Shown here piece after piece: positions 6,356 to 64,000 of a stretch of DNA of 64,000 bases. The number at the start of each line of letters is the position of its first letter. Position 1 is the first letter of the stretch. The position numbers and the translations under genes are program-made. Source of the DNA: Chloroflexota bacterium (GTDB lineage: Bacteria > Chloroflexota > Anaerolineae > JACRMK01). Below the pieces are notes generated by a model. The model had not been told where the DNA came from. It made no database searches and worked only from the letters and a program-made list of their open reading frames with translations. Location: NCBI GenBank assembly GCA_016235055.1, contig JACRMK010000046.1:34958-98957 (forward strand), given 5' to 3'.

Positions 6356-6523
6356 CCACGGCATGACGGCGTGACAGGATGACAGGCTGGCCGGGTGACA
6401 CGGTGACACGATGAAGAGATGACGGGATAACACGATGACAAGGGGCAGCTTGGGGCGCACTATGAGCGCAGATTCGCGTTATTCGCGGACAGGTTGTTTT
6501 TAAGAAGTCCGACGGTTTGACGG

Positions 6524-11889: not shown

Positions 11890-11941
11890 AGACAGATGTT
11901 ACCGATAAAGCGGCGCAGGCGCAAGCGAGTTGTGCGGTAGG

Positions 11942-12192
11942 AGGTATATTCAGTTCTGGGGCGCAACCAATACGGAGCAAGAACATAGTAGCTCGTTATG
12001 TCCGCGTAGGGGCGCATGGCCATGCGCCCGCATCCAGAGGTGCTGCCCCCTGGATTCCCGCGGTGCTCTGCGGCCTTCATCCTGTGCCCGCGCCTGCGGC
12101 GCGGAGCGGGGCGAAGCCCCGCTGCACAGGACATCGCGCAGAGCGTTAACCGCCCGCTGGCCCGAAGCCAGCGGGAAACGCGCGGGAGTGAC
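11942..12192. repeat. Composite intergenic repeat, family 4 (GGTATATTCAGTTCTGGGGCGCAACC module plus GTAGGGGCGC hairpins)
   Basis: Modules recur at about 31255-31370 (inverted) and 55057-55220; several perfect short palindromes. Confidence 0.55.
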
Positions 12193-12433
12193 GTCTTGTT
12201 CTGCCACGGACACCTATTTGCCCCCAATTTGAAATGCGCTCCTATGCCGTAGTGCATACCCGAAAGGTTTAGCGCACCTCCGATAGCGGACAACCCACGA
12301 GAAACTCTTCGGGTCGCAACGCGCCGCGCTCCCATTCGTCGTGCCGGACAACCCTGTGCGCCGATATCCGCGCAATTCCAGCAGATTCATTTCCTCTAGT
12401 ATAATGACCGACGTACCAATTTTGGAGGTCTCT

Positions 12434-16957: not shown

Positions 16958-17278
16958 GAACTACCGCCTTTCTGGAATCTCAGAACTGCGGCCAGTATAG
17001 CGAGTACCGATGCGTCGTTCTATCCGATTCTTGCGGTTCAAACTGCCGCACAAGCAGGGGACGGCAAAAAGGAATCGTCCGCGCTAGAGCATCTTGCAGA
17101 AACATCGGGCACGCCATGCGGTTCGCCGGGTAGGGGCAGGTCTTTGACCTGCCCAGCGGACAGGCCAAAGGCCTGTCCCTACAGGCGGCGTGCAGCACCG
17201 TATCGGATCATGTCGCAAACCGCTATAAACGCTGGCGACGCTTATGCTTATCCGGGCAGAGCGTGTCCGCAGGAACAT

Positions 17279-17415
17279 GTCATGTTGAGCGCGGCGGCCA
17301 AGTCATCATTAGGCAGACAATCACGCACGCGAAGCATCTATGCCGAAGCATTTCAGGTGCTTCGCGCGCGTGACAGGCCTACCCACAGCGGCCTTGCCTT
17401 CGCGCTGCTCATGAC
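17279..17415. repeat. MITE-like element, family 1 copy
   Basis: Terminal inverted repeats GTCATGTTGAGCGCGG / CCTTCGCGCTGCTCATGAC; internal GAAGCATTTCAGGTGCTTC hairpin as in the copy at 2777. Confidence 0.55.
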
Positions 17416-20223: not shown

Positions 20224-20233
20224 AGCTGTTATC

Positions 20234-20452
20234 GGGGATCGGGTTTCAGGTGTCAGGGATCAGGGGATAGGGTATAGGGCATAGTGAGAGCGTCTTGCGC
20301 CGGCCGTCGACATCCGCTTCGCGCAGCAACGCCTTGCTCCGATCCCGAATACCCGATGCCCGGACTCTATGCCTTGTTCCCCGAAACCTGACCCCTGATT
20401 CTCTATTCCCTATCCCCTGATCCCTGACACCCGATCCCTGATACCCGACCCC
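20234..20452. repeat. Large imperfect palindrome in divergent promoter region
   Basis: Left arm GTGTCAGGGATCAGGGGATAGGG is mirrored as CCCTATCCCCTGATCCCTGACAC about 140 bp away; arms extend to about 50-85 bp with mismatches. Confidence 0.6.
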
Positions 20453-21739: not shown

Positions 21740-21955
21740 CAGAGCACGCAAAGAGCGCAAAGAAAAGCTTTGTTGACCGTGAATAACGCGAATTGGCGCT
21801 AGTCGAACGCTAACCGCAGAGAACGCAGAGGAAAACAAGACCAACCGCAAAGCACGCAAAGAGCGCAAAGGAGAACCCTGCTTTCGATTGGCGTCGATTC
21901 GCGTTATTCGCGGATAGAGAGCTTTTCTTTGCGGTCTTTGCGCCCTTTGCGGTTC
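21740..21955. repeat. MITE-like element, family 2 (nested inverted repeats; inner GAATAACGCGAAT / ATTCGCGTTATTC)
   Basis: Outer inverted repeat CGCAAAGAGCGCAAAG / CTTTGCGCCCTTTGCG and inner CCGCGAATAACGCGAAT-type termini; related copy at 56831-56974 and solo ends near 2712, 6465, 24808. Confidence 0.6.
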
Positions 21956-22026
21956 AATGTTCTTGGTGTCCATTCGTGTTCCTTCGTGGACAAAGGTGAT
22001 GTTGAATCTTCCCTGGGGATTTTCTA

Positions 22027-24765: not shown

Positions 24766-24839
24766 AACTTTTCACCGCAGAGAGCGCAGCGAGAACCTTT
24801 GTATCCGCGAATAACGCGAATCGGCGCGAATAGAACAAC

Positions 24840-24995
24840 TGCGTCCCCCAATGAACGCAAAGAGCGCAGAGGTTACTCCCTGCGCTCTCGTCATCTCTTC
24901 ATCCAGTTATCTTGTCATCTCTTCATCCAGTCATCTTGTCATCTCTTCACCTTGTCACCTTGTCACCTTGTCATCTTGTCATCCCGTCATCTTTC
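24840..24995. repeat. Short tandem repeats (CTTGTCAYC units) next to solo family-2 repeat end
   Basis: TCATCTCTTCATCCAG... then CACCTTGTCACCTTGTCACCTTGTCATCTTGTCATCC; similar GTGACAGGATGACAGG tract in inverted orientation near 6380-6450. Confidence 0.55.
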
Positions 24996-25479
24996 AGATG
25001 ACCGGCTTCTCCTTGTCGGTCAGGTTGACGACGACGGCGCGGCTCGCCTTGACCAGGTCGGCCGGCGCAATCAGGATCTCCTCGCCCCACTGGCCGGTGC
25101 CGACGCCGAGCACGCTCTCAATCAGCAGTGACGCTTCGAGGAACGAGCGGAAGCCCGGCCTCTGCCAGTGAAACGGCGGGATCGAGCCGATCTCGTAGCC
25201 GGTCGTCGTTTTGACCGCTTCCGGGCTGGCGAGCTTGATGTTGCGCGAGTTGAGCACCTTCTTCAGGTGCCCGGAGATCGCGCTCTGGTCGCCGCCGAGC
25301 ATGATCAGTGCCCGCTCGCCGCGGTCGTTCTCGAAGATCAGCGTCTTGACCATCTGCCGCTCGTTGAAGCCGAGCGCGCGCGCCACCGAGGCCGCGCCTT
25401 TCTCGATGTCGGTCGGGAATGAGCGCCGCTCGTATGGAATATTCTGCTGGTCGAGGTAGTCGTGGGATGGCAGGTTCAT
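24994..25479 (-). CDS. ybaK: YbaK/ProX-type aminoacyl-tRNA deacylase (Cys-tRNA(Pro) editing domain)
   Basis: 161 aa from internal ATG with AGGAGA upstream; central G-rich loop and K...GG editing-domain pattern (MVKTLIFENDRGERALIMLGGD). Confidence 0.75.
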   Translation of the reverse strand: MNLPSHDYLDQQNIPYERRSFPTDIEKGAASVARALGFNERQMVKTLIFENDRGERALIMLGGDQSAISGHLKKVLNSRNIKLASPEAVKTTTGYEIGSIPPFHWQRPGFRSFLEASLLIESVLGVGTGQWGEEILIAPADLVKASRAVVVNLTDKEKPVI

Positions 25480-25587
25480 CGCGGTCTCCTGTGCCGGTTG
25501 GCGTAGTGCGCGTATTATAGCCGAACCGCATCCACGAAGGAATACAAAGGGGCACGAATAGACCGCCGACACACAGCAATCCCGACC

Positions 25588-25687
25588 GTCATGCCGGCAA
25601 GTAGTAAGCCGGCATCCACGACCACGGCACGCAAAAGCCCGTGACTCTTGGCCGTGTGGATTCCGGCCAAAATCACGCCGGAATGAC
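25588..25687. repeat. MITE-like element, family 3 (termini GTCATGCCGGCA ... GCCGGAATGAC)
   Basis: About 100 bp with 11-bp terminal inverted repeats and internal hairpin GCCGGCAAGTAGTAAGCCGGC; second copy 41470-41568. Confidence 0.6.
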
Positions 25688-25852
25688 AAATTGCCGATTG
25701 TTGCCGACTTTTAGCGCTTCTTGCCTGTTTGGTGCCCCTTCGTGCCGCTTCGTGGACAATGCTCCCGCGATTTCTGGTATACTTTCAAGGATACGGCCGC
25801 GCGCGGCGGCGCGCCAGCCGGCTGGCGCTGGTTACCCACGGAGGACGCGAAT

Positions 25853-27763
25853 ATGGCTCACGGAAGCACTGGCAAGATCCTGCACGTCAATCTCACCACA
25901 TCGGCTATTCACACCGAAGATATCGACGAGGCGCTGTACCGCCTCTACCCCGGCGGCAAAGCGCTGGCCGCCTACCTGCTGCTCAAGCAGATGCCGGCAC
26001 ACGCCGACCCGCTCGGCCCCGACAATGTGCTGATCCTGGCCAACGGCGTGCTGACCGGCGCGCCGGTCTCGACCGCCACGCGCTTTTCGGCCGTCGCGCG
26101 CTCGCCACTAACCGGCGCATTCGGCGAGTCGGAAGCGGGCGGTTTCTGGGGCCCGGAACTCAAGTTCGCCGGCTTCGAGGCGATCGTGCTCAAAGGGCGC
26201 GCCGACAAGCCGGTCTACCTCTGGATCAAAGACGGCCGGGTCGAGATTCGCGATGCAGCGCACCTGTGGGGCAAGGAGACCGGCGACACGCAGAACGCCG
26301 TGCGCGCCGAACTGGGCGACAAGCTGGTGCGCTTCCTGCAGATCGGCCCCGGCGGCGAGAACCTGGTGCGCTTCGCCTGCCTGACCAACGACCTGCGCCA
26401 CTACAACGGCCGCAACGGCATGGGCGCGGTGATGGGCTCCAAGCGGCTCAAGGGTATCGCCGTGCGCGGCAGCGGCAAGTACCTCGACCTTGCCGAGCAG
26501 CCGAAGGCGCTCTCGGAGTTCGGCAAGCTGCTGTCGAAGCGCGTCAAGAACCAGCCGCAGTCGTTCGACTTGCAGGAGAAGGGCACGCCGGGCATCACCG
26601 GCGGCCTGAACGCGGCCGGCATCCTGCCGACGCGCAACTTCCTGCAGGGCGCGTTCGAAGGCGTGGACGGCCTCAAGTGGGAGGTATACGAGAAGGAACT
26701 GCTGACCGCCCGTCGCTCGTGCTACGCCTGCGCCGTGCGCTGCAAGCGCGAGGTCGCGGTGAACGACCGCTACGTGGTCAGCGATACTTACGGCGGCCCG
26801 GAGTACGAGGCGGTCGGCGGCTTCGGCTCGAACTGTGGCATCGGCGACCTGCAAGCGGTCGCCAAGGCGAACGAACTGTGCGGGCGCTACACGCTCGACG
26901 CCATCTCGACCTCATCGGTCATTTCGTTCGCCATGGAATGCTTCGAGCACGGGCTGATCACGACGAAGGACACCGGCGGCATGGAACTGCGCTTCGGCAA
27001 TGTCGACGCGATGCTGAAGACGGTCGAGTTGATCGCGTTCCGTAAGGGCATCGGCGACCTGCTGGCCGAGGGCGTCAAGCGCGCGGCTGAAAAGATCGGC
27101 GGCGACGCGCCGTTTTTCGCGATGCACGTCAAGGGCCAGGAACTGCCGATGCACGACCCGCGCGGCAAGATTGGCGTTGGCATCGGCTACGCCGTCAACG
27201 AGGGCGGCGCGGATCACCTCGTCGCGTACCACGACACGGCGCTCGCGAACCCGGCGTCGGCCGGTTTCAAGAGCGCGACGGCGCTCGGCATCACGGAAGC
27301 GGTGCCACCGCGCGAACTCAGCGCGCGCAAGGCGTTCAACTACGCGATTCTGGAGAACTGGAGCAGCGCCGGCAAGGTGACCGGCTACTGCTACTTCGGC
27401 CCCGGCCCGCGCTCGTTCATCGAGGCGCAGGAAGTCGTCGATTCGGTGCGCGCGGCGACCGGTTGGGATCTGACGATTGCCGACCTGCTCAAGATCGGCG
27501 AGCGGGCGACGAACCTGGCGCGCGTCTTCAACGTGCGCGAAGGGTTCTCGCGCAAAGACGACATGATCCCGGAGCGGTTGTTTGCGCCGTCGCCGGTCGG
27601 CGCGCTGCAGGGCGTCGGCATCTCGCACGACGAGTTCGAGCAGGCGCTGACCGAGCTGTACCGGCTGAAGGGCTGGGACCCGGAGACCGCGAAGCCGACC
27701 CGCGAGCGCCTGCGCGAGCTGGGCATCGAGTGGGCGGCGGACATCGTCGAGGCGTCCGCGTAG
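25853..27763 (+). CDS. Aldehyde:ferredoxin oxidoreductase (tungsten/molybdopterin AOR family)
   Basis: 636 aa from internal ATG with GGAGGA upstream; N-terminal HVNLT...YPGGKAL AOR signature; cysteine motif CYACAVRC for the [4Fe-4S] cluster. Confidence 0.9.
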   Translation: MAHGSTGKILHVNLTTSAIHTEDIDEALYRLYPGGKALAAYLLLKQMPAHADPLGPDNVLILANGVLTGAPVSTATRFSAVARSPLTGAFGESEAGGFWGPELKFAGFEAIVLKGRADKPVYLWIKDGRVEIRDAAHLWGKETGDTQNAVRAELGDKLVRFLQIGPGGENLVRFACLTNDLRHYNGRNGMGAVMGSKRLKGIAVRGSGKYLDLAEQPKALSEFGKLLSKRVKNQPQSFDLQEKGTPGITGGLNAAGILPTRNFLQGAFEGVDGLKWEVYEKELLTARRSCYACAVRCKREVAVNDRYVVSDTYGGPEYEAVGGFGSNCGIGDLQAVAKANELCGRYTLDAISTSSVISFAMECFEHGLITTKDTGGMELRFGNVDAMLKTVELIAFRKGIGDLLAEGVKRAAEKIGGDAPFFAMHVKGQELPMHDPRGKIGVGIGYAVNEGGADHLVAYHDTALANPASAGFKSATALGITEAVPPRELSARKAFNYAILENWSSAGKVTGYCYFGPGPRSFIEAQEVVDSVRAATGWDLTIADLLKIGERATNLARVFNVREGFSRKDDMIPERLFAPSPVGALQGVGISHDEFEQALTELYRLKGWDPETAKPTRERLRELGIEWAADIVEASA

Positions 27764-27787: not shown

Positions 27788-28120
27788 ATGAGCACCCCCG
27801 TAATCGCCGAGCCGCCGTGCTTGGCTGAAGCGATTGAGCGCATCGTGCAGCAGTTTCACCCGCTGCGCATCATCCTGTTCGGCTCCTGGGCGCGCGGGGA
27901 CGCCCGCCCGGACAGCGACCTTGATTTGCTGGTGGTGATGCCGGAGGCGCAGAACAAGCGCGCTATGACAGTTCGCATAGGCAATTCGTTGAGTGATCTG
28001 CCGATCAGCAAAGATGTCGTGGTAACGACGCCAGCGGAGATCGTGGAGCACGGGCAGACTATCGGGCGGGTGCTCCAGCCGGCGCTGGCCGAAGGCAAAG
28101 TCGTCTATGAGCGCCGATGA
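27788..28120 (+). CDS. Nucleotidyltransferase (MNT/MntA-like antitoxin component)
   Basis: GSWARGD...DSDLDLLVV matches the GSx9-13Dx[DE] minimal nucleotidyltransferase motif; GGAGGAG upstream. Confidence 0.8.
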   Translation: MSTPVIAEPPCLAEAIERIVQQFHPLRIILFGSWARGDARPDSDLDLLVVMPEAQNKRAMTVRIGNSLSDLPISKDVVVTTPAEIVEHGQTIGRVLQPALAEGKVVYERR

Positions 28121-28508
28121 TGTAGGCACTTGGCTGGCGTATGCGCATTCCGACTTGGGGGCGGGTCGGTCACTCTTGCTCGGGCCTGAGCCTTTTTCAC
28201 GCCAGTCGTGTTTTTATGCACAACCGGCTGCGGAAAAGGCGCTAAAAGCTGTGCTGGTAGCGCATGGCATCAAAGTTCCGCACACGCATGACCTTGATCA
28301 TTTGCGTGAGATCATCCCGGGCGGGGCTTCGGTGAAAGTCGAATTCCCGCACCTCTATGCATTGTCGATCTGGGCCGTCGAGGCGCGCTATCCCGGCGAT
28401 CCGCAAGAGGTCACGGCCGATGAGGCACGCGCGGCGCTCGATCTGGCGGAACGAGTGCTGCGGGCGGTGGAGCGCGACTTGCGCGCCGGCGGCGCAGAGG
28501 CGTCGTAG
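28107..28508 (+). CDS. HEPN domain protein (toxin component), overlaps MNT gene by 14 nt
   Basis: 133 aa with HEPN-like helices (QQA/QPAAEKALKAVL); gene order MNT-HEPN with overlapping ends is the canonical arrangement. Confidence 0.75.
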   Translation: MSADDVGTWLAYAHSDLGAGRSLLLGPEPFSRQSCFYAQPAAEKALKAVLVAHGIKVPHTHDLDHLREIIPGGASVKVEFPHLYALSIWAVEARYPGDPQEVTADEARAALDLAERVLRAVERDLRAGGAEAS

Positions 28509-28808: not shown

Positions 28809-28950
28809 GGTCATCCTGAGCGCGAAAGCGGGGCGTATGTCCTTTGGCTCGTTAGGCGCGCGAAGGATCTGAACTGCCGCCTCTCAGATTCTTCGCGCGC
28901 GAGGCGTGTTGCACGCCATCGGTCTTGCCGCCGCGCTCCGAATGACAGCG
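28809..28950. repeat. MITE-like element, family 1 copy
   Basis: Termini GGTCATCCTGAGCGCGAAAG / CCGCGCTCCGAATGACAGCG with internal CGCGCGAAGG...CTTCGCGCGCG hairpin. Confidence 0.5.
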
Positions 28951-31037: not shown

Positions 31038-31254
31038 ACGACGCCCGTCGGCGCAATCGAAATTATACCCGCGCTATGGATGACGGGCAACTGGCGACCC
31101 GGCAACGGGTATACCGACAAACTGTCGGGGACTCAATCGGTCGTCATGCCGGAATGGCGGATTGGTCAGCCGTGCGGCCCCGACACTTTTGCGGTATACC
31201 CTTTCAATTGGGTGCATTTCGGATTGGGGCCGGGCGCATGCAACTCAACGAGGC

Positions 31255-31370
31255 GTCACTCCCGCGGAAGCGGGAGTCCAGGGACAACACCGCTGGATGC
31301 CCGCGCTGGTCGGCGGCGAGCCACCGTGGTCTCATACCGTATTGGTTGCGCCCCGGAACTGAAAATACCC
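31255..31370. repeat. Intergenic repeat, family 4 partial copy
   Basis: CGTATTGGTTGCGCCCCGGAACTGAAAATACC is the reverse complement of the module at 11942; CACTCCCGCGGAAGCGGGAGTC hairpin. Confidence 0.5.
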
Positions 31371-31467
31371 CCTTTCAACGTCTCAAGCATAGCGAACTGC
31401 CTGCGCAGGGGAGCGATTTGCGAGCTCATCGGGTCGGTATTCATAGGGCGTGCCGGGCGCGCCCGGA

Positions 31468-41253: not shown

Positions 41254-41469
41254 TAGAATCTCGGACCGACTAGCTAATGGAGTGCTACGGGGGTGTATTT
41301 ACCCGTGATCGTCGCGATCTGGGACACGGGCGTGCTCCCTTCCATAGCACGCTGCGCCGATGGTGCTGCCTCATTCGGGTAGACCGATAATAGGCTCGCG
41401 GGAAGCTAATGTCAAGCGAGTAAAAGGTAGGAGCGCACCTCAGTTTCGGGGTAGAGTTGTTGGCAACCC

Positions 41470-41568
41470 GTCATGCCGGCATGTAGTTAGCCGGCATCCA
41501 CGCCAGCATCTGGCGCGCATGCTGGCCCGTGTTACGCCGGCGTGGATTCCGGCCTTCGCCGGAATGAC
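41470..41568. repeat. MITE-like element, family 3 copy
   Basis: GTCATGCCGGCATGTAGTTAGCCGGCAT ... GCCGGAATGAC; close match to 25588-25687. Confidence 0.6.
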
Positions 41569-41792
41569 GGCTTGGATATGCGGTGCATCAGTTTCTGCAC
41601 TCACGCATCCGACGCTGCGGGATGTAATTCTTGCAACGACAGTCTCGCTGAGTGGTGGTTATGCGTATCGGACATCTCTGTTACTGAGTTGTCGAAATCT
41701 AGCATTCATCCGATATTCGCAATATACACTGTATTTCCGGGCGCTTCGTACTCATCGCATGCGCGCTATTTGCTGAAAAGTCAGTAAGCGTT

Positions 41793-46259: not shown

Positions 46260-47024
46260 ATGCGCAAAGAGATAGCAACCGTCGTGTTGGGATTAACAAT
46301 GATACTCGCGGCTTGCGGGCCGACCCCCACACCCGCCGCCATGATGCAAGCCGCGATGCCAACGCCTGACGCAATGATGGCCAAGCCGACGCCCGATGCG
46401 ATGATGGCCAAGCCGACGCCCGATGCCATGATGGCCAAGCCGACGCCCGACGCCATGATGGCGCGCCCAACACCCGACGCGATGATGGCGCACCCAACAC
46501 CCGACGCCATGATGGCGCACCCAACACCCGACGCGATGATGGCGCATTCGACCCCGGATGCCATGATGCAAGCCCCGGCCTGGTTTGGCGCATCGCTGAC
46601 CGATGTGCGCACCGGTCAGACGTTCTCGCTCAACGGCTTCAAAGGCAAGGTGGTGCTGGTCGAAACGATGGCGCAATGGTGTCCGAGTTGCCGCACGCAG
46701 CAGACGCAGGTGAAAGACCTGCGCGCGATGTTTGCCGGGCGCGATGATCTGGTGACGATCGCGCTCGACGTGGATCCGAATGAGCAGGCCGCCGACCTGA
46801 AGAAATACGTGCAGGCCAACGGCTTCGAAGGGTTCTACGGCATCGCGCCCGCCGCCGTGGCGCGCGAGATCGGCAATCTTTATGGCGCGCAATTCCTGAA
46901 TCCGCCGTCCACGCCGATCCTGATTGTGGACCGCCACGGCCTGGCGCATCCCCTGCCGTTCGGCATCAAGAGCGCACGCGATCTGGCGAGCGCCATCGAG
47001 CCGTACCTCAAGGACGCCATGTAA
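46260..47024 (+). CDS. TlpA/ResA-like thioredoxin-fold lipoprotein with tandem nonapeptide linker
   Basis: Lipobox ILAAC; seven to eight repeats of A[KRH]PTPDAMM; redox motif WCPSC; AAGGAG upstream. Confidence 0.85.
   Translation: MRKEIATVVLGLTMILAACGPTPTPAAMMQAAMPTPDAMMAKPTPDAMMAKPTPDAMMAKPTPDAMMARPTPDAMMAHPTPDAMMAHPTPDAMMAHSTPDAMMQAPAWFGASLTDVRTGQTFSLNGFKGKVVLVETMAQWCPSCRTQQTQVKDLRAMFAGRDDLVTIALDVDPNEQAADLKKYVQANGFEGFYGIAPAAVAREIGNLYGAQFLNPPSTPILIVDRHGLAHPLPFGIKSARDLASAIEPYLKDAM
46341..46560 (+). repeat. 27-bp tandem repeat array inside the tlpA-like gene (coding, in frame)
   Basis: GCCAAGCCGACGCCCGATGCGATGATG-type unit repeated about 8 times with third-position and K/R/H variation. Confidence 0.8.
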
Positions 47025-51560: not shown

Positions 51561-51953
51561 CTAGCGCGGCTTGCCCAATTGCGCCGCCACAAAACGGACA
51601 ATGCTCAGCGCGTATTGATAATATTCCCCGGATTGCTCGATCGTCGGCGCCGCTTCAATATCAGCCGGGTAGACCGATTGCGTCGTAAACGGCACGAGCG
51701 CCGCCACCGGCCGCTCAAACTGGCGGAACGCCGCATCGACCGAGACACACAGCCCCAGCAGGTAGGTCAGGTTCTGGCGCAGCAAAAAGTGCTTGGCGCT
51801 CGCCACCAGATATGCCTTCAGGCTCTTTTCGATCGCCTGCTGGCAATGAAAGGCGTGGATCGCCGTCGGGAAGTCGTCGACGTGCTGCAGAATCTCCGCG
51901 GTTCTAAGGTCGGACTGCGCATAGCGCAGCCAGTCTTGAGCATTTTCAGCCAC
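51561..51953 (-). CDS. HEPN domain protein, orphan (no adjacent nucleotidyltransferase gene)
   Basis: 130 aa, GTG start; helix pattern HCQQAIEKSLKAYL similar to the HEPN at 28107; sits between cpaB and cpaE-like genes. Confidence 0.7.
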   Translation of the reverse strand: MAENAQDWLRYAQSDLRTAEILQHVDDFPTAIHAFHCQQAIEKSLKAYLVASAKHFLLRQNLTYLLGLCVSVDAAFRQFERPVAALVPFTTQSVYPADIEAAPTIEQSGEYYQYALSIVRFVAAQLGKPR

Positions 51954-54821: not shown

Positions 54822-55056
54822 ATTATAACATTATAACGGCATAGCGGGAGCGCAACAATAGCCCATACGGCACAAAAGTCGCTGAACTGTGCCATCCGGC
54901 CAGCCGGCCAGCGCGGTGCCGTCAGGCTCTGCCGGGGTGGAAGGCGCCAATCCCCTCGCCTGCGACGCCGTTGGGTGAGCCTGCCGAACCCCGTCGCGGG
55001 AGAGGGTTTGGGAGCGGGCCAATCCGACTCTGAAAAGACCCAGACCCGATAAGCAG

Positions 55057-55220
55057 GGTGCATTTCACTTCTGGGGCGGCTAATGGGCCAACAAGCCGTC
55101 ATGCCGTTGCCCGCTGGCCCCTTGCCAGCGGGCGCTTGACGGTCAGCGGCGAGAAGCCGCTGACCAGCGCGGGCATCCAGAGGTGTTGCCCCTGGACTCC
55201 CGCTTTCGCGGGAGTGACGA
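55057..55220. repeat. Composite intergenic repeat, family 4 copy
   Basis: GGTGCATTTCACTTCTGGGGCGGC module; GCCCGCTGGCCCCTTGCCAGCGGGC and TCCCGCTTTCGCGGGA hairpins matching modules at 12030-12192. Confidence 0.55.
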
Positions 55221-55316
55221 TGTGGAGGGCTGACTGGTTATGCGCCGAATCTCGCCCCTAATCTGAAATACACCCGATAAGAACATTTGTTTCATTGGTG
55301 GTTCATCCTGTGGTAT

Positions 55317-56690: not shown

Positions 56691-56830
56691 TGCGGGTGCG
56701 TAGGGGCGCGTTGCACGCGTCCCGCAACGGGGCACATGCAATGTGCCCCTACGTTATCCGCAGGTGGCAGATGTCGTTCTGCGAAACGATCATCCGCTGC
56801 CCGCCCAGCACCTCCGCCGCATAGACTCAT

Positions 56831-56974
56831 CCACGAAGGGACACGAAGGAACACCAAGAACACCTTTATCCGCGAATAACGCGAATGAACGCGAATAGAG
56901 CCCACAAACTCCAGAACTGATTGGCCTCGATTCGCGTTATTCGCGGATCGCTTTTTATTTGTGTTCCTTCGTGG
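56831..56974. repeat. MITE-like element, family 2 copy (nested inverted repeats)
   Basis: Outer CCACGAAGGGACACGAAGGAACAC / GTGTTCCTTCGTGG; inner CCGCGAATAACGCGAAT / ATTCGCGTTATTCGCGG. Confidence 0.6.
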
Positions 56975-56982
56975 ACGGTGTG

Positions 56983-59069: not shown

Positions 59070-59186
59070 GTCACATCCGTTCCAGCCGGTCTTATTTATC
59101 TCGCCTCGCTTGACTTTCCCCCGCCAAATCGAGTACGCTTGCAACGCAACACCGTCCACAACCATGACCTGGTAAGGAGGCATCCC

Positions 59187-60785
59187 ATGACCACGTTGTA
59201 TGCCGAGAAGCAGGCTGCGTTCGATTGGATCGAAGCCAACCGAGCGCGCCTTTCCGGCTTCTGCGAGCAGATCTGGAACTATGCGGAGACGGCGTTCCGC
59301 GAGTACAAGTCCGCGCGCGCGTATTGCGATCTGCTGCGCGCCGAAGGGTTCACCGTCGAGGAAGGCTCCGCCGAGATGCCGACGGCGTTCGTCGCGACGT
59401 ACGGCAACGGCGGGCCGGTGCTGGCGACGTTCTCCGAATACGACGCCGTGCCGGAGAACTCGCAGGAGCGCGTGCCGTACCCGTCGCCGCGCGCCGGCCT
59501 GAACCGCTGGGCGGCCGGGCACACCGACCCGCACTCGTCGCTCGGCACGAGCGCGCTGATCGGTGCGCTGGCCGCCAAGGCGATGATGGTCAAATACGGG
59601 CTGCACGGCACGCTCAAGCTGTTCGGCGAGCCGGCGGAGAAGGTCTGCGGTTCCAAGCCGGTACACGCCGCCAAGGGGTATTACGACGGGCTCGACGCGG
59701 CGGTCGTCTATCACCCCAATGCCAGCAACTCCGTAGTGTGGGAAACACACAGCGGCTCGTACTGGAGCGCGGCGTTCGTCTTTGAGTGCATCGATCCGGA
59801 GGAGTGGATCGACCAGCGCCTGCTGCCGAACACGAGCACCTCGCACGCGGCGGCGCGCTGTCCGGCGGCGATCGACGCGCTGTGCCTGATGTATACGCTG
59901 ACCAAGTACAGCAAGGAGGCGATGTTCCCGCACACCGGCACCTGGACGCTCAACGAGAACATCATGGTTGGCGGGCAGTGCACCTCGGACAACCTGCCGC
60001 CGCGCCTGGCGGTCATCCAGTACTCGTGGCGCTCGCCGACGCTCGACATCCAGGAGCGCGTATTCCAGGTGCTGGCGCAGAACGCGCGGCAGGTCGCCGG
60101 CGCGACCGGCTGCGTCGCCTCGGTGCGCTGGATCACGAAGACGCGCGTCGGCCTGCCGAACCTGGCGATCTCCGACCTGGCCTACCGCAACCTGGAACTG
60201 GTCGGCGCGCCCCAGTTTGGAGACGAGGCGCGCACCTTCGCCCGCGCGATCCAGAAGAATCTCGGCTTCGAGCCGATGGACGACCCGTTCATTGCCGACA
60301 ACCAGACGCTGACGCCGCCGCCCGAACTGGAAGCGCGCGTGCGCCAGGGCCTGCCGCCGTGGCAGCTCAACTTCACGTCGGATGATTATGTGGAATACAC
60401 CTGGCACGCGCCGACCGTGCGGCTCTACACGGCGCGGCCGCGCCTGAAGGCGCCCAAGCCCGGTTACACGTACCCGGCATGGGTGAACAACGCGATGGGC
60501 GGCGTGCCGGCCTGCATCGATCCCGGCATGTTCGTCGCGGGCAAGACGATCGCCGCGACGATGCTCGATCTGCTCAAGTCCCCGGACGAGCTCGCCAAAG
60601 CGCAAGCCGAGTTCCGCGAGCGGACGGGTGGCGGCGTGGGCGGCAGCCAGTGGGTCGCGCCGCTGTTGGCGCGCGATTTCCCGCCGCCGGTCGAATTACG
60701 CTGGCCGGAGTACGTGCAGACGCCGCGCGGCGAGGAGTGGTGGGTGCCGACGGTGACGCACGAATCGGCCTACGTGAAGCTGTAG
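59187..60785 (+). CDS. M20-family amidohydrolase (aminobenzoyl-glutamate-utilization AbgB-like)
   Basis: 532 aa from internal ATG with AAGGAGG upstream; metal-ligand regions (GHTDPHS, EPAEK) typical of M20 peptidases. Confidence 0.8.
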   Translation: MTTLYAEKQAAFDWIEANRARLSGFCEQIWNYAETAFREYKSARAYCDLLRAEGFTVEEGSAEMPTAFVATYGNGGPVLATFSEYDAVPENSQERVPYPSPRAGLNRWAAGHTDPHSSLGTSALIGALAAKAMMVKYGLHGTLKLFGEPAEKVCGSKPVHAAKGYYDGLDAAVVYHPNASNSVVWETHSGSYWSAAFVFECIDPEEWIDQRLLPNTSTSHAAARCPAAIDALCLMYTLTKYSKEAMFPHTGTWTLNENIMVGGQCTSDNLPPRLAVIQYSWRSPTLDIQERVFQVLAQNARQVAGATGCVASVRWITKTRVGLPNLAISDLAYRNLELVGAPQFGDEARTFARAIQKNLGFEPMDDPFIADNQTLTPPPELEARVRQGLPPWQLNFTSDDYVEYTWHAPTVRLYTARPRLKAPKPGYTYPAWVNNAMGGVPACIDPGMFVAGKTIAATMLDLLKSPDELAKAQAEFRERTGGGVGGSQWVAPLLARDFPPPVELRWPEYVQTPRGEEWWVPTVTHESAYVKL

Positions 60786-60835
60786 CCAAACGCGACGCAC
60801 AAACGGAAGCGGGACAGGCATGATGCCTGTCCCGC
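60705..60835 (+). repeat. Direct repeat, left copy (3' end of M20 gene plus terminator)
   Basis: 131 bp; identical to 62092-62222 except 2 substitutions. Confidence 0.85.
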
Positions 60836-60841
60836 TTTTTT
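60811..60841 (+). terminator. Rho-independent terminator of M20 gene
   Basis: GGGACAGGC-atga-GCCTGTCCC followed by GCTTTTTTG. Confidence 0.7.
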
Positions 60842-60945
60842 GTTGTGCGTGCTATCCCTCAGCGCGCCCGGCTGGACGAAACTGGCTTGAATCCCCGTTT
60901 GCGGCAATCCGCACGAGGAATGTCAAACAGCATCAGTACGGAGAA

Positions 60946-61080
60946 AATGGGGGTACGACGGCGTGTGCCCATTGCCAACGCAGTGGGCAACAAGTCAAGG
61001 ACGGAATCAATGCGTTTGGCAGCCTGCAGTATCGATGCAAAGGCTGTTGCCCTTCTGAACTTTTTCACTTAACACGGTAG
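60946..61080 (+). pseudogene. Possible IS1595-family transposase N-terminal zinc-ribbon remnant
   Basis: ...NGGTTACAHCQRSGQQVKDGINAFGSLQYRCKGCCPSELFHLTR then stop; pattern NG..C.HC...(13)...YRCK.C...F resembles the Zn_Tnp_IS1595 ribbon; no DDE domain follows. Confidence 0.3.
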
Positions 61081-61086
61081 CAATTG

Positions 61087-61743
61087 TCATCTTCCAAGCA
61101 ATTCTGCATTCGACTGGAATAGAGGAATCTGTGTACTTTCAGTATCATCGCAGTCCGGTGAGAACTTGTATTTCACGTTGAAACTCATTTCTGAATAGCT
61201 GTAGGCTTGATACCCTTTAAAATGGGAATTGGAAAGCTGGGTAAAGCGATTCTCAATAGGTTTCCATACGGCGGTGCTCCAATATGAAACCGGATATCGT
61301 ATGCACGACCTCTCGTGAGCCCCACCATCTTGAACATCCAAATCGACAAAAACCAAGAATCGATCTGAACCGAACTTCACATACTCGACCAAGTAGTAGC
61401 CCTTGCCATGATACCAAACGTCTCGCCTGACCCCGACGTTTATCGAACCAAGCGCTTGTGCCTTGGTGATAAACGCCGCGACCCCTGAGGCATCTTGCAC
61501 GGCCGCAGTCGCCCAGAAGGTATTTTCGCGTTGAGCTTTACGCTGTGACTCAATTGTGCTGACAGCTCGATCATCAAGTGTACCATATGAAATCGCATTC
61601 GACGCGCCTTGGTAAACTGCGACGACGGCAGAGAATCCGACGAGGATGATCAGGAGGCCGATTAATCCCCTCAGCAAATTGCCAAAACATCCCGACTCGA
61701 TCAAAATACCCAAGCCAACAGCTCGAAAGAAGTTATCGCTCAT
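61087..61743 (-). CDS. Hypothetical membrane-anchored protein (cargo gene B)
   Basis: 218-aa ORF in AT-richer DNA where stop-free frames of this length are unlikely by chance; two N-terminal hydrophobic helices; ATGA overlap with upstream ORF. Confidence 0.55.
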   Translation of the reverse strand: MSDNFFRAVGLGILIESGCFGNLLRGLIGLLIILVGFSAVVAVYQGASNAISYGTLDDRAVSTIESQRKAQRENTFWATAAVQDASGVAAFITKAQALGSINVGVRRDVWYHGKGYYLVEYVKFGSDRFLVFVDLDVQDGGAHERSCIRYPVSYWSTAVWKPIENRFTQLSNSHFKGYQAYSYSEMSFNVKYKFSPDCDDTESTQIPLFQSNAELLGR

Positions 61744-62054
61744 ATTCCGCCTGCGTCTTTCTCTTCGGTGACAACTGGAGGAAAACAGCGCTTTGCACTA
61801 GAAAGCATGTCTCGCCGTGTGTACCGCATGTATCCAATCTTCAAGTATATGCACTTTGCATTGTGGCGACCATCATGATAGCGGTGTGAGTTTCCAGGCT
61901 TGGGCAATGGCGAACGAAGATGGAAATAGCATCGAACTTCGCTCGCGTATTTTCTTCTGAACTCAGCCCACGGTTGGTTTGTCCCATAAACACAGTCATT
62001 ATACAACTTTGTGCTGCGTTTCTGGTTTATCGGCAATGGGTGTAGCAACGACAT
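61740..62054 (-). CDS. Hypothetical Cys/His-rich small protein (cargo gene A)
   Basis: 104 aa; 4 Cys and 6 His could form a metal site; no obvious RBS. Confidence 0.45.
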   Translation of the reverse strand: MSLLHPLPINQKRSTKLYNDCVYGTNQPWAEFRRKYASEVRCYFHLRSPLPKPGNSHRYHDGRHNAKCIYLKIGYMRYTRRDMLSSAKRCFPPVVTEEKDAGGI

Positions 62055-62091
62055 ACACTTGATTCCATCGATACCGTGCGGTTTGCTCTGG

Positions 62092-62222
62092 CCGGAATAC
62101 GTGCAGACGCCGCGCGGCGAGGAGTGGTGGGTGCCGACGGTGACGCACGAATCGGCCTACGTGAAGCTGTAGCCAAACGCGACGCACAAACGGAAGCGGG
62201 ACAGGCATCATGCCTGTCCCGC
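62092..62222 (+). repeat. Direct repeat, right copy (duplicate of M20 3' end plus terminator hairpin)
   Basis: Same 131 bp as 60705-60835 with G-to-A at position 6 and loop ATGA-to-ATCA; followed by TTCATTTTC. Confidence 0.85.
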
Positions 62223-62459
62223 TTCATTTTCACTCGGGCGCGGTATTCTGTTCGGACCCTATCTGGCTGCGTCGGGATCGCGTAGGGGCGCACCGACGTG
62301 TGCGCCCGCCTGGCACGCTGCGGGCCGACACGCAGGTCGGCCCCTACCACCGGCGCTTTGCGGGTGGCTTTGCCCAATTCGCACGCATGTTCTAAGTTTG
62401 TGCTATAATAGCGACGGGCACAGAACATTAGTTCTCACTACCGCTATAGGAGAATCGCG

Positions 62460-62733: not shown

Positions 62734-64000
62734 TTACGCCGGTCGCCAGCAGAGGTCCGGCTTGCGCGCTGCCGTCGCCTCGTCCAGCCGCGAGACCGGC
62801 GTGGTGTGCGGCGCAGAGCGCACGAGCTCGGGGTTCTCCTCGGCCTCGCGCGCGATCTGCAGCATCACCTCGCAGAAGCGGTCGATCGTCTCCTTGCTCT
62901 CCGTCTCGGTCGGCTCGACCATCAGCGCTTCCTCGACGACCAGCGGGAAGTAGACCGTCGGCGGGTGAATGCCGAAGTCGATCAGCCGCTTGGCGATGTC
63001 GAGCGTGCGCACGTTGTTCTTCGCCTGGCGCTTGCCGGAAAAGACGACCTCGTGGTAGCAGGTGCGGTCGAACGGCAGGTCGTACGCGCCCTTGAGGCGC
63101 TCCTTGATGTAGTTCGCGTTCAGCACGGCGATCTGGCTCACCTCGCGCAGGCCGTCCTCGCCGTGTGAGCGGATGTACGCGTAGCCGCGCACCAGGTTGG
63201 CGAAGTTGCCGTGGAACGCGCGCACCCGGCCGATCGACAGCGGCCGGTCGTTGTCGAGCGTGTAGCGGCCATCCTTGAATGCGACGACCGGCGCCGGCAG
63301 GAACGGCGCCAGCGCCTTGGAAACGCTTGTGCCGCACGCGCCCGGCCCGCCGCCGCCGTGCGGCACGCCGAACGTCTTGTGCAGGTTGTAGTGCAGGATG
63401 TCGAAGCCGACCTCGCCCGGCTTGCAGATGCCGAGCAGGGCGTTCATGTTCGCGCCGTCGCCGTACACCAGGCCGCCCGCCGCGTGCACCAGTCGATTGA
63501 TCTGCTCGATGTGCTGGTCGAAAAGGCCAACCGTCGACGGATTGGTGATCATCATGCCCGCGACCGTGTCGTCGAGCAGCGCCTTCAGCGCGTCCACGTC
63601 CACGTTGCCGTGGGCGTCCGCCTTGACGGTGACGACGCTGTAGCCGACCATCGCGGCGGTCGCCGGGTTGGTGCCGTGCGAGCTATCCGGCACGATAATT
63701 TTGGTGCGCTTCGTGTCGCCGCGCGACTTGTGATAGCCGTGGATCATCAGCACGCCGGTCAGTTCGCCGTGCGCGCCTGCCGCCGGCTGCAGCGTCGCGC
63801 CCGCGTGCCCTGCGATCTCGGCGAGCTGCTCCTGCAGTTCGTACATCATGCGCAGCGCGCCCTGCACGGTGCTCTCAGCCTGGTACGGGTGAATGCGCGC
63901 AAAGCCCGCCTGCCCGGCGATGACGTCGTTGATCTTCGGGTTGTACTTCATCGTGCACGAGCCGAGCGGATAGAACACGGTATCCACGCTGAAGTTCTTG
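62734..64000 (-). CDS. gcvPB: Glycine dehydrogenase (decarboxylating) subunit 2, GcvPB; 5' end lies beyond window
   Basis: PLP-enzyme motifs incl. [13 protein letters not shown] and LHKTF (Lys for PLP); reading frame stays open to the window edge. Confidence 0.9.

Follow-up and report, generated by a model that had tools for sequence, protein, structure and literature searches.

Intergenic repeats of an uncultured Chloroflexota genome are probably copies of one palindromic DNA element with an NTS/SRM-type hairpin doublet at its core

Miniature inverted-repeat transposable elements (MITEs) with structured interiors include the Correia elements of Neisseria, the enterobacterial ERIC, the pneumococcal RUP and BOX, and SMAG of Stenotrophomonas. 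Here we describe intergenic repeats in a stretch of 64,000 nt from an uncultured Chloroflexota genome (contig JACRMK010000046.1, positions 34,958 to 98,957; ~65% G+C), referred to below as the window. Three of these repeats, E1, E2 and E3, probably descend, with divergence, from one palindromic DNA repeat that is specific to the lineage and non-autonomous. This repeat is MITE-shaped, has a centre like that of a REPIN (an inverted doublet of repetitive extragenic palindromes, REPs) and carries as its core a hairpin doublet of the NTS/SRM type. The NTS (Neisseria Transformation Sequence), with the consensus CGTCATTCCCGCGMAVGCGGGAATCYRG, is an extension of the dRS3 repeat (PMC11893778, Nat Commun 2025), and the degenerate pattern HGTCWYN(0-2)YYVSBRHN(0-5)WNVSBRGN(0-2)RNCYNB describes the wider Ssn-related motif (SRM) (PMC11893778). 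SsnA, a GIY-YIG protein, binds and cuts the single-stranded DNA form of the sequence and not RNA; cleavage of single-stranded DNA (ssDNA) has been shown for the Neisseria and Wolbachia homologues, and ssn genes are usually flanked by NTS/SRM hairpins (PMC11893778). The same Neisseria 21-mer is the REP of a REPIN population tied to a group-2 REP-associated tyrosine transposase (RAYT), and the Neisseria REPIN master sequence contains ATTCCCGCGCAGGCGGGAATC (Bertels & Rainey, bioRxiv 10.1101/2021.07.10.451892).

Three-way alignment of the regions with their flanks showed E1 (11940-12242, +), E2 (31208-31372, -) and E3 (55054-55271, +) to be collinear copies of one non-coding element of 160-300 bp. 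In all of them a left end GG(R)GGTAT(W)TTCAGTTCYGGGGCG is followed by the core, ..CAGCGCGGGCATCCAG - AGGTGTTGCCC - CTGGACTCCCGC-TTYC-GCGGGAGTGACG, and by a right end CGCCCC(N)AATYTGAAATRCACCC. The right end is the left one inverted, with mismatches. The core pattern CATCCAGNGGTGNTGNCCC(N)TGGANTCCCGC occurs three times in the window and never in shuffled sequence, and the end pattern six times (0.31 expected), of which five mark element ends and one lies alone at 28143-28163; E2 and E3 are 94% identical across 64 nt. An initial annotation, made from the sequence alone, had proposed that three intergenic regions share sequence, and these counts bear it out. The regions that it delimited are real, but they stop at the second hairpin and miss some 50 nt at the right of each copy, and its membership was incomplete in that the core-hairpin doublets at 41469-41569 and 25587-25688 (E4 and D5, see below) had been overlooked. 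The parts of the three copies and the solo end are as follows; hairpin 2 written as a single oligonucleotide is CGTCACTCCCGCGRAAGCGGGAGTCCAG, and the labels used for the window are CGTCACTCCCGC for the core hairpins and GGGTGCATTTC for the element ends.

11940-12242 (+): E1, full composite element, 303 bp (alignment with E2 and E3; one closed fold, z = -5.5)
11940-11963 (+): left inverted end of E1, GGAGGTATATTCAGTTCTGGGGCG (alignment, end comparison)
11994-12005 (+): probable remnant of the 5' arm of E1 hairpin 1, CGTTATGTCCGC as against the canonical CGTCATGCCCGC (sequence reading)
12006-12029 (+): single GTAG-headed REP hairpin GTAGGGGCGCATGGCCATGCGCCC, at the expected loop of E1 hairpin 1
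12030-12053 (+): 3' arm of E1 hairpin 1, GCATCCAG, and the small central hairpin CCAGAGGTGCTGCCCCCTGG
12051-12061 (+): 5' arm of E1 hairpin 2, TGGATTCCCGC
12062-12181 (+): self-complementary insert of 120 nt exactly in the loop of E1 hairpin 2, with nested GC-rich hairpins (DNA fold z = -7.0)
12153-12175: CCCGCTGGC..GCCAGCGGG hairpin within the E1 insert
12182-12193 (+): 3' arm of E1 hairpin 2, GCGGGAGTGACG
12219-12242 (+): right inverted end of E1, TGCCCCCAATTTGAAATGCGCTCC (end pattern, end comparison)
28143-28163 (+): solo end-like sequence, GCGCATTCCGACTTGGGGGCG (end pattern)
31208-31372 (-): E2, full element (alignment; spanned at 100% identity by Logan contig L244)
31254-31281 (+): E2 hairpin 2 in NTS orientation, CGTCACTCCCGCGGAAGCGGGAGTCCAG
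31293-31308 (-): degenerate E2 hairpin 1, of which the 3' arm CAGCGCGGGCATCCAG alone is left
55054-55271 (+): E3, full element (alignment; fold z = -7.5)
55097-55180 (+): expanded E3 hairpin 1, 5' arm CGTCATGCC at 55097-55105 and 3' arm CAGCGCGGGCATCCAG at 55165-55180
55109-55133 and 55141-55165: two extra hairpins inside E3 hairpin 1
55192-55219 (-): E3 hairpin 2 in NTS orientation, CGTCACTCCCGCGAAAGCGGGAGTCCAG, which fits the published SRM pattern

Compared in windows of 24 nt, left ends agree with one another at 18/24 positions and right ends at 17.7/24, as against 15/24 between left and right, which argues for descent from one composite element with two distinct ends. Terminal inverted repeats are present at both ends of E1, E2 and E3, but they are weak (14-18/24 within an element). 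The modules had been described at the outset as lying in different order and orientation. This holds for one two-hairpin module, found at 12113-12200 in E1 and at 55090-55177 in E3 (72% identity over 93 nt, in a different place and in opposite orientation). It carries CCCGCTGGC..GCCAGCGGG, is located in the left half of E3, lies inverted within the right hairpin loop of E1 and is missing from E2. Otherwise the copies are collinear, E2 being simply reverse-complemented. Similarly, the GCCCGCTGGCC hairpin that had been taken for a shared module is present in E1 and E3, but not in E2.

Read on the other strand, the intact core hairpin is CGTCACTCCCGCG-RAA-GCGGGAGTCCAG, a variant of the Neisseria NTS/dRS3 or "Ssn-related" motif. 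Hairpin 2 of E3 departs from the NTS consensus in a single compensated pair (T>C / A>G), and that of E2 in the same pair and one loop base. The published SRM pattern has five matches in the window, as against 0.52 in shuffles, and these include the GCCGGC-stem doublets of E4 and D5; with DNA parameters a stem of 8 bp and a loop of 4 nt are predicted, and the hairpin is given its orientation by GTCA on the upstream side and a C directly behind the palindrome. The window hairpins share with NTS/dRS3/SRM the CGTCA, the 8-bp stem (A-Y-TCCCGC), the 4-nt loop, the return stem and the TCCAG, with the non-palindromic flanks in the same orientation; like these they are intergenic and multicopy with compensated stem variants, and in foreign loci single-domain GIY-YIG genes lie near the hairpin. 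They differ in that the host belongs to the uncultured Chloroflexi and not to the Pseudomonadati, in their stems (ACTCCC/GGGAGT and ATGCC, plus the GCCGGC subfamily), in being heterotypic inverted doublets set in a longer shell that has inverted ends and is flanked by duplications, and in that no ssn gene lies within the window.

In the window, elements combine a left hairpin of the ATGCC type with a right hairpin of the ACTCCC or ATTCC type. The left hairpin is degenerate or disrupted in E1-E3, and both hairpins are intact in E4 and D5, two further doublets identified with the SRM pattern and a covariance model (see below).

41426-41600 (+): E4, a left-end-like sequence (41426-41451) followed by an intact GCCGGC-stem doublet of a second subfamily (41469-41501 and 41542-41569)
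25587-25688 (+): D5, an intact GCCGGC-stem doublet

E4 has no inverted right end, its doublet being followed by forward left-end-like fragments alone. On either side of D5 lie the inverted ends of another repeat family, at 25531-25555 and 25732-25756. Nesting of palindromes is also seen in E1, where the GTAG REP (12006-12029) sits at the expected loop of the left hairpin and the perfectly nested 120-nt hairpin set in the loop of the right one, whose stem still closes round the insert.

The family that encloses D5 is itself MITE-like, with inverted ends TCCACGAAGGnACACGAAGG.. (21958-21990, 56830-56862, 56948-56978, 25531-25555, 25732-25756) and an interior pair of CGCGAATAACGCGAAT hairpins (2709-2756, 21759-21806, 24787-24834, 56852-56899, 6466-6501, 21891-21926, 56924-56959). 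Its copy at 25531-25756 has the NTS doublet in place of the usual interior.

The GTAGGGGC hairpins are a GTAG-headed, REP/REPIN-like family separate from the E elements. They form inverted doublets, GTAGGG(G/A)C-hairpin-hairpin-G(C/T)CCCTAC, at three sites, and GTAGGGRC occurs seven times in the window against 1.6 expected.

17130-17182: GTAG-headed inverted doublet, REPIN-like (DNA fold z = -4.4)
56700-56752: GTAG-headed inverted doublet, REPIN-like (DNA fold z = -4.6)
62282-62347: GTAG-headed inverted doublet, REPIN-like

These are the hairpins that had been listed as isolated GTAGGGGCGC hairpins; they are indeed present, but as inverted GTAG doublets, and the one at 17130 reads GTAGGGGCAG and not GCGC. 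This family is connected with the E elements only through the one copy that lies within E1, and the E-element core is without GTAG. With REPINs (Bertels & Rainey) the window repeats have in common two inverted short hairpins that are separated by a short spacer and form a long imperfect palindrome, as well as being non-coding, intergenic and multicopy, and the GTAGGGGC doublets fit the classical GTAG-headed form. Unlike REPINs, the NTS-type doublets are heterotypic, both in the window and in other phyla, since their two halves have different stem types; no RAYT is present in the window, and movement of the RAYT/IS200 type takes place without target duplication, in contrast to the flanking repeats of 9-10 nt found at E2 and E3.

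In 185,579 representative genomes and a metagenome collection the strict core pattern is absent, as against three sites in the window, and the source metagenome-assembled genome and its close relatives are therefore absent from these collections. The right-hairpin pattern TGGANTCCCGC-N3-6-GCGGGAGTGA, for which we roughly estimate ~4 chance matches, is found at no fewer than 120 loci in the genome collection and at least 120 in the metagenome collection; 240 of these loci (L004-L243) were fetched. Among the matches listed are Alpha-, Beta- and Gammaproteobacteria, Desulfobacterota, Planctomycetota, Latescibacterota, Zixibacteria and others, and, within the Chloroflexota, SAR202, Dehalococcoidia, Anaerolineales and Promineifilaceae. 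An inverted partner hairpin lies upstream in 141 of the 225 testable foreign matches listed, at a median spacer of 17 nt. Its stem, in the same matches, is of the type ATTCCC (81), ATTCCTG (16), ATGCCC (14), ATCCCC (11) or, in only 4, ACTCCC. The ACTCCC-type hairpin is usually the right half of a doublet and is very seldom found alone or paired with itself, across at least six phyla among the matches listed. Doublet lengths in these foreign matches cluster sharply at 70 nt. Many copies have a spacer that is, by eye, itself palindromic.

A covariance model built from 71 foreign doublets only recovered E4 (48 bits, E = 2.6e-9), E3 (44 bits), E2 (36 bits) and D5 (27 bits, E = 2e-4) and nothing else in the window below E = 0.6, with about equal scores on both strands. 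E1 was missed because of the 120-nt insert in its right hairpin loop. The nested design has parallels among the foreign loci, where outer inverted repeats are found within 80 nt of 25% of the doublets as against 4% of mismatched controls. In a Desulfacinum family the doublet lies at the centre of an element of ~140 bp that has its own inverted ends of 22 nt.

These data allow a further, tentative reading, to which we give rather little weight. The replicating unit may be the heterotypic doublet of ~70 nt (fixed in polarity and geometry, with an ATTCCC-type hairpin before and an ACTCCC-type hairpin after a short palindromic spacer) and not the single NTS hairpin. It may be an ancient mobile or enzyme-addressed module, common to Proteobacteria, Desulfobacterota, Planctomycetota, Chloroflexota and candidate phyla, that has come to lie again and again within palindromic shells specific to a lineage, the Chloroflexi E element being one example. 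Loops may be its preferred landing sites, giving rise to the "Russian-doll" palindromes of E1, E3 and D5. In the NTS/SRM and REPIN literature cited here we found no description of a cross-phylum heterotypic doublet of fixed geometry or of its nesting habit. If this reading is true, the Ssn/NTS system would have to be seen anew, as a REPIN-like replicator that spans phyla.

E3 is bounded by an exact direct repeat of 10 nt, ACCCGATAAG, at 55044-55053 and 55272-55281, and E2 by an exact repeat of 9 nt, CCCTTTCAA, at 31199-31207 and 31370-31378, the second copy of which overlaps the element end by 3 nt. In 20,000 random pairs of sites from the window, repeats of at least 10 nt occurred at ~0.1% and of at least 9 nt at ~0.4%. 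If these are target duplications, they would suggest a transposase acting in trans. The E elements have in common with MITEs a length of 160-300 bp, inverted ends, the lack of an open reading frame (ORF), an intergenic position that is often near promoters, direct repeats at the flanks (E2 and E3) and a strong predicted fold. They depart from MITEs in that the ends in the window are poorly conserved (58-75% within an element), in that no parent insertion sequence is known, and in that the interior is a hairpin doublet common to several phyla and not a deleted transposase gene.

Three independent Logan contigs (L001-L003, from three separate metagenome runs) end at 31196-31201, no more than 5 nt from the edge of E2, and a fourth, L244, runs through E2 at 100% identity. 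The breaks could result from a 30-mer shared with another place in the genome or from population heterogeneity at the site. No empty site for E2 was found among the Logan contigs that span E2 or stop at its edge. Exact-protein look-ups found the sortase and the leucine-rich repeat (LRR) proteins on short Logan contigs only, and returned no record for the aldehyde:ferredoxin oxidoreductase (AFOR) hit P0001, TadE, the full-length LRR ORF or the Schlafen-type ATPase.

Several observations weigh against E1-E3 as copies of one such element. Only three full copies are at hand, all of them decayed, and the two ends of one element are only 58-75% identical. Hairpin 1 is degenerate in all three, and E1-E3 may therefore themselves be dead. 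The flanking repeats of E2 and E3 overlap the last bases of the inverted ends, which makes the boundary and the length of the repeat ambiguous, and E1 has no convincing flanking duplication (the best is an imperfect 7/9 that overlaps the inverted end and was not counted). By BLAST, the shell outside the core shows no similarity to the 240 foreign loci, so that shell and core as one moving unit are unproven. Finally, Pfam annotation of essentially all credible ORFs of the window revealed no transposase, no Y1/RAYT and no GIY-YIG protein, and an Ssn profile matched nothing in all six frames of the window at E <= 10. With no Ssn, RAYT or transposase in the window, the elements are here non-autonomous.

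The Ssn profile was made from six Ssn-like proteins encoded next to or near the hairpin in the foreign loci, first located with a consensus and then confirmed by Pfam as GIY-YIG. Single-domain GIY-YIG genes of 89-94 amino acids (aa) occur in 6 of the 240 fetched loci, and three of them (L077, L142, L187) lie within ~150 nt of the matched hairpin, which agrees with the published association of NTS and ssn.

L077, 4967-5248: Ssn-like GIY-YIG gene
L142, 411-677: Ssn-like GIY-YIG gene
L187, 1887-2165: Ssn-like GIY-YIG gene
L149, 6855-7133: Ssn-like GIY-YIG gene
L098, 1735-2001: Ssn-like GIY-YIG gene
L161, 7964-8230: Ssn-like GIY-YIG gene

The element consists of an outer shell, with imperfect inverted ends in distinct left and right versions, and of a core, in which an inverted NTS/SRM-type doublet encloses a small central hairpin. 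This anatomy is shown by the data, as are the homology of the core to the widespread NTS/SRM doublet, the covariation of the hairpins and the lack of coding capacity and of RNA signals. The acting enzyme, the mode of mobility and any effect on the host are inferred. In the model that we propose, the hairpins may extrude when the DNA is single-stranded, for example during replication or DNA uptake, and would then be recognised and cut by an enzyme whose gene lies in another part of the genome. The most likely enzyme appears to be an Ssn-type GIY-YIG ssDNA nuclease, with a Y1 (RAYT-like) transposase as the alternative. The whole shell would have spread by insertion, duplicating 9-10 bp, and the differences in length would be due to later GC-rich palindromes that landed in, or grew from, the hairpin loops of E1 and E3.

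An unlikely alternative is that the regions are mosaics comparable to bacterial interspersed mosaic elements (BIMEs) or Neisseria intergenic mosaic elements (NIMEs), in which independent small palindromic units, among them NTS hairpins, GTAG REPs, other GC-rich hairpins and end-like motifs, accumulate and recombine at intergenic hot spots and no composite ever transposes as a unit. The relocated and inverted two-hairpin module of E1 and E3 would fit such an origin, as would E4, which joins a left-end-like motif to a different doublet subfamily without an inverted right end, D5 within the ends of another repeat family, the solo end at 28143-28163 and the palindromes nested in hairpin loops. With the BIMEs of E. 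coli and the NIMEs of Neisseria the window repeats do share small palindromic units that are combined with other short motifs, some variation in order and orientation, and nesting. However, E1-E3 are collinear over the ends, the left-internal region and the core, their left ends are closer to each other than to the right ends, and exact direct repeats of 9-10 nt bound E2 and E3. Taken together, collinearity, end identities and direct repeats make descent from one composite element, with mosaic changes coming later, the simpler explanation; unlike BIMEs and NIMEs, E1-E3 would then be largely collinear descendants and not free combinations. The suggestion of the initial annotation that these are REP-like elements that recombine was right as to kind, given the NTS/dRS3-type core, the GTAG REP/REPIN-like hairpins and some mosaicism, but it overstated the shuffling, which is not free and appears to have affected one composite element.

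Far less probable, in our view, is a structured multicopy non-coding RNA or cis-regulatory leader that is transcribed with, or ahead of, the downstream gene. The initial annotation had raised this possibility as well, together with the expectation that repeats lacking both compensatory changes and transcription would be plain DNA repeats. Since the three copies of the window are too few for an analysis of covariation, three hairpins of the window were aligned with 85 foreign partner hairpins picked by flanking GTCA/TCCA at fixed spacing, pairing not being required. GTCA and TCCA are invariant across the 88 aligned hairpins, but both were the selection criterion. In the 8-bp stem 98.3% of cells are paired and 5 of the 8 pairs are changed on both sides (52 such cells), which none of 500 shuffles equalled; when the partner is shifted by one to three columns, pairing drops to 19-49%. 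One position distinguishes the two halves of the doublet, and it is compensated inside each hairpin (ATTCCC/GGGAAT vs ACTCCC/GGGAGT), which speaks for a pair of local hairpins more than for a single long one. Selection thus acts on the structure of the hairpin. Compensatory changes are abundant, so that their absence, named beforehand as a refuting outcome, is not what is seen; but the same is expected of a DNA hairpin that is read by a protein, and no proof of RNA follows. Moreover, strong as the covariation is, the palindrome scores about equally on both strands, as a DNA palindrome would, and for the outer helices three copies are too few.

The predicted folds of E1 and E3 are very stable relative to shuffles (z = -5.5 and -7.5), whereas that of E2 is no better than shuffles (z = -1.15). 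Downstream of each of E1, E2 and E3 the next gene has the same orientation as the element. This would suit a leader, but three cases carry little weight, and E4 breaks the rule; nor are the genes related to one another, as they encode a phosphodiesterase, a sortase and a Schlafen/AlbA-type ATPase. Small-RNA reads of a related hairpin have been reported in Thalassospira (PMC6413936). The Neisseria homologue is bound and cut as ssDNA and not as RNA (PMC11893778). Rfam gave no match at any copy, at the gathering threshold or at E <= 5. A pattern scan found no promoter-like or terminator-like site inside any copy, its only promoter-like site lying between E2 and the start of the sortase gene; for the genes beside E1 and E3, TATAAT motifs closely precede the likely starts and again lie between element and gene. 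The flanking duplications, too, point to insertion events and not to an RNA gene. A riboswitch or leader RNA was rejected in view of the unrelated downstream genes and the promoter-like sites between element and gene. Retron, integron attC, group II intron and CRISPR were dropped, as their defining motifs or adjacent genes appear to be absent by sequence reading and Pfam annotation.

Chance similarity or a compositional artefact of GC-rich DNA, for which nothing speaks beyond the ~65% G+C, is practically negligible given 3 to 6 observed matches against 0 to 0.5 expected from shuffles, the 94% identity of E2 and E3 over 64 nt and a model built from foreign sequences that reaches E = 2.6e-9.

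Other features of the window were noted in passing. The aldehyde:ferredoxin oxidoreductase encoded at 25721-27763 has relatives outside its own organism that are only ~73% identical, which points to an uncultured Chloroflexi without a close sequenced relative. At 60838-62073 (within 60687-62224) there is an insert of 1.2 kb with low G+C (~57%) and an ORF of 218 aa (61087-61743, -) without a Pfam match. It is flanked by a direct repeat of 151 nt (95% identity), in which the gene at 59139-60785 has its 3' end duplicated together with the terminator hairpin. The insert has the appearance of an insertion that produced a long target duplication, or of a scar left by recombination. A tandem array with a period of 8 nt (TCATCTCT / TCATCCAG / TCTTGTCA units) at 24862-24997 has an inverted relative 18 kb away (6363-6438). 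A tandem repeat of 27 nt at 46326-46595 (8-10 copies), its period being a multiple of three, may encode a repeated peptide. A further intergenic repeat family, GCGCGCGAAG..CTGAA..CTTCGCGCGC, occurs in both orientations (2822-2918, 17321-17370, 28810-28906), and an inverted repeat of 51 nt rich in GGGATCAGGGGATAGGG (20232-20282 / 20398-20448) is 84% complementary with 115 nt between its arms. A 92-nt tRNA-Ala(GGC) called by ARAGORN at 63283-63374 (-), inside the ORF for glycine dehydrogenase subunit 2 and not reported by Rfam, is probably a false positive. A nucleotidyltransferase gene (NTP_transf_2/Polbeta) at 27788-28120 and a HEPN gene at 51561-51953, inside a tad pilus operon, are likely toxin-antitoxin modules; on Logan contig L001 HEPN and nucleotidyltransferase genes are adjacent.

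At the level of annotation, intergenic repeats of an uncultured Chloroflexi genome can be explained as selfish hairpin DNA, and caution is advised against calling such repeats RNA genes or ORFs. Hairpins of this kind are known to be translated into spurious peptides. The NTS/Ssn-related hairpin, so far described mainly from Neisseria and other Pseudomonadati, is placed here in the Chloroflexota and several other phyla, where it is typically part of a heterotypic doublet of fixed geometry that often lies inside a longer palindrome. Should Ssn nucleases or Y1 transposases act on such doublets, the doublets would be useful markers for ssDNA-directed genome dynamics in uncultured lineages and a source of new ssDNA nuclease specificities.

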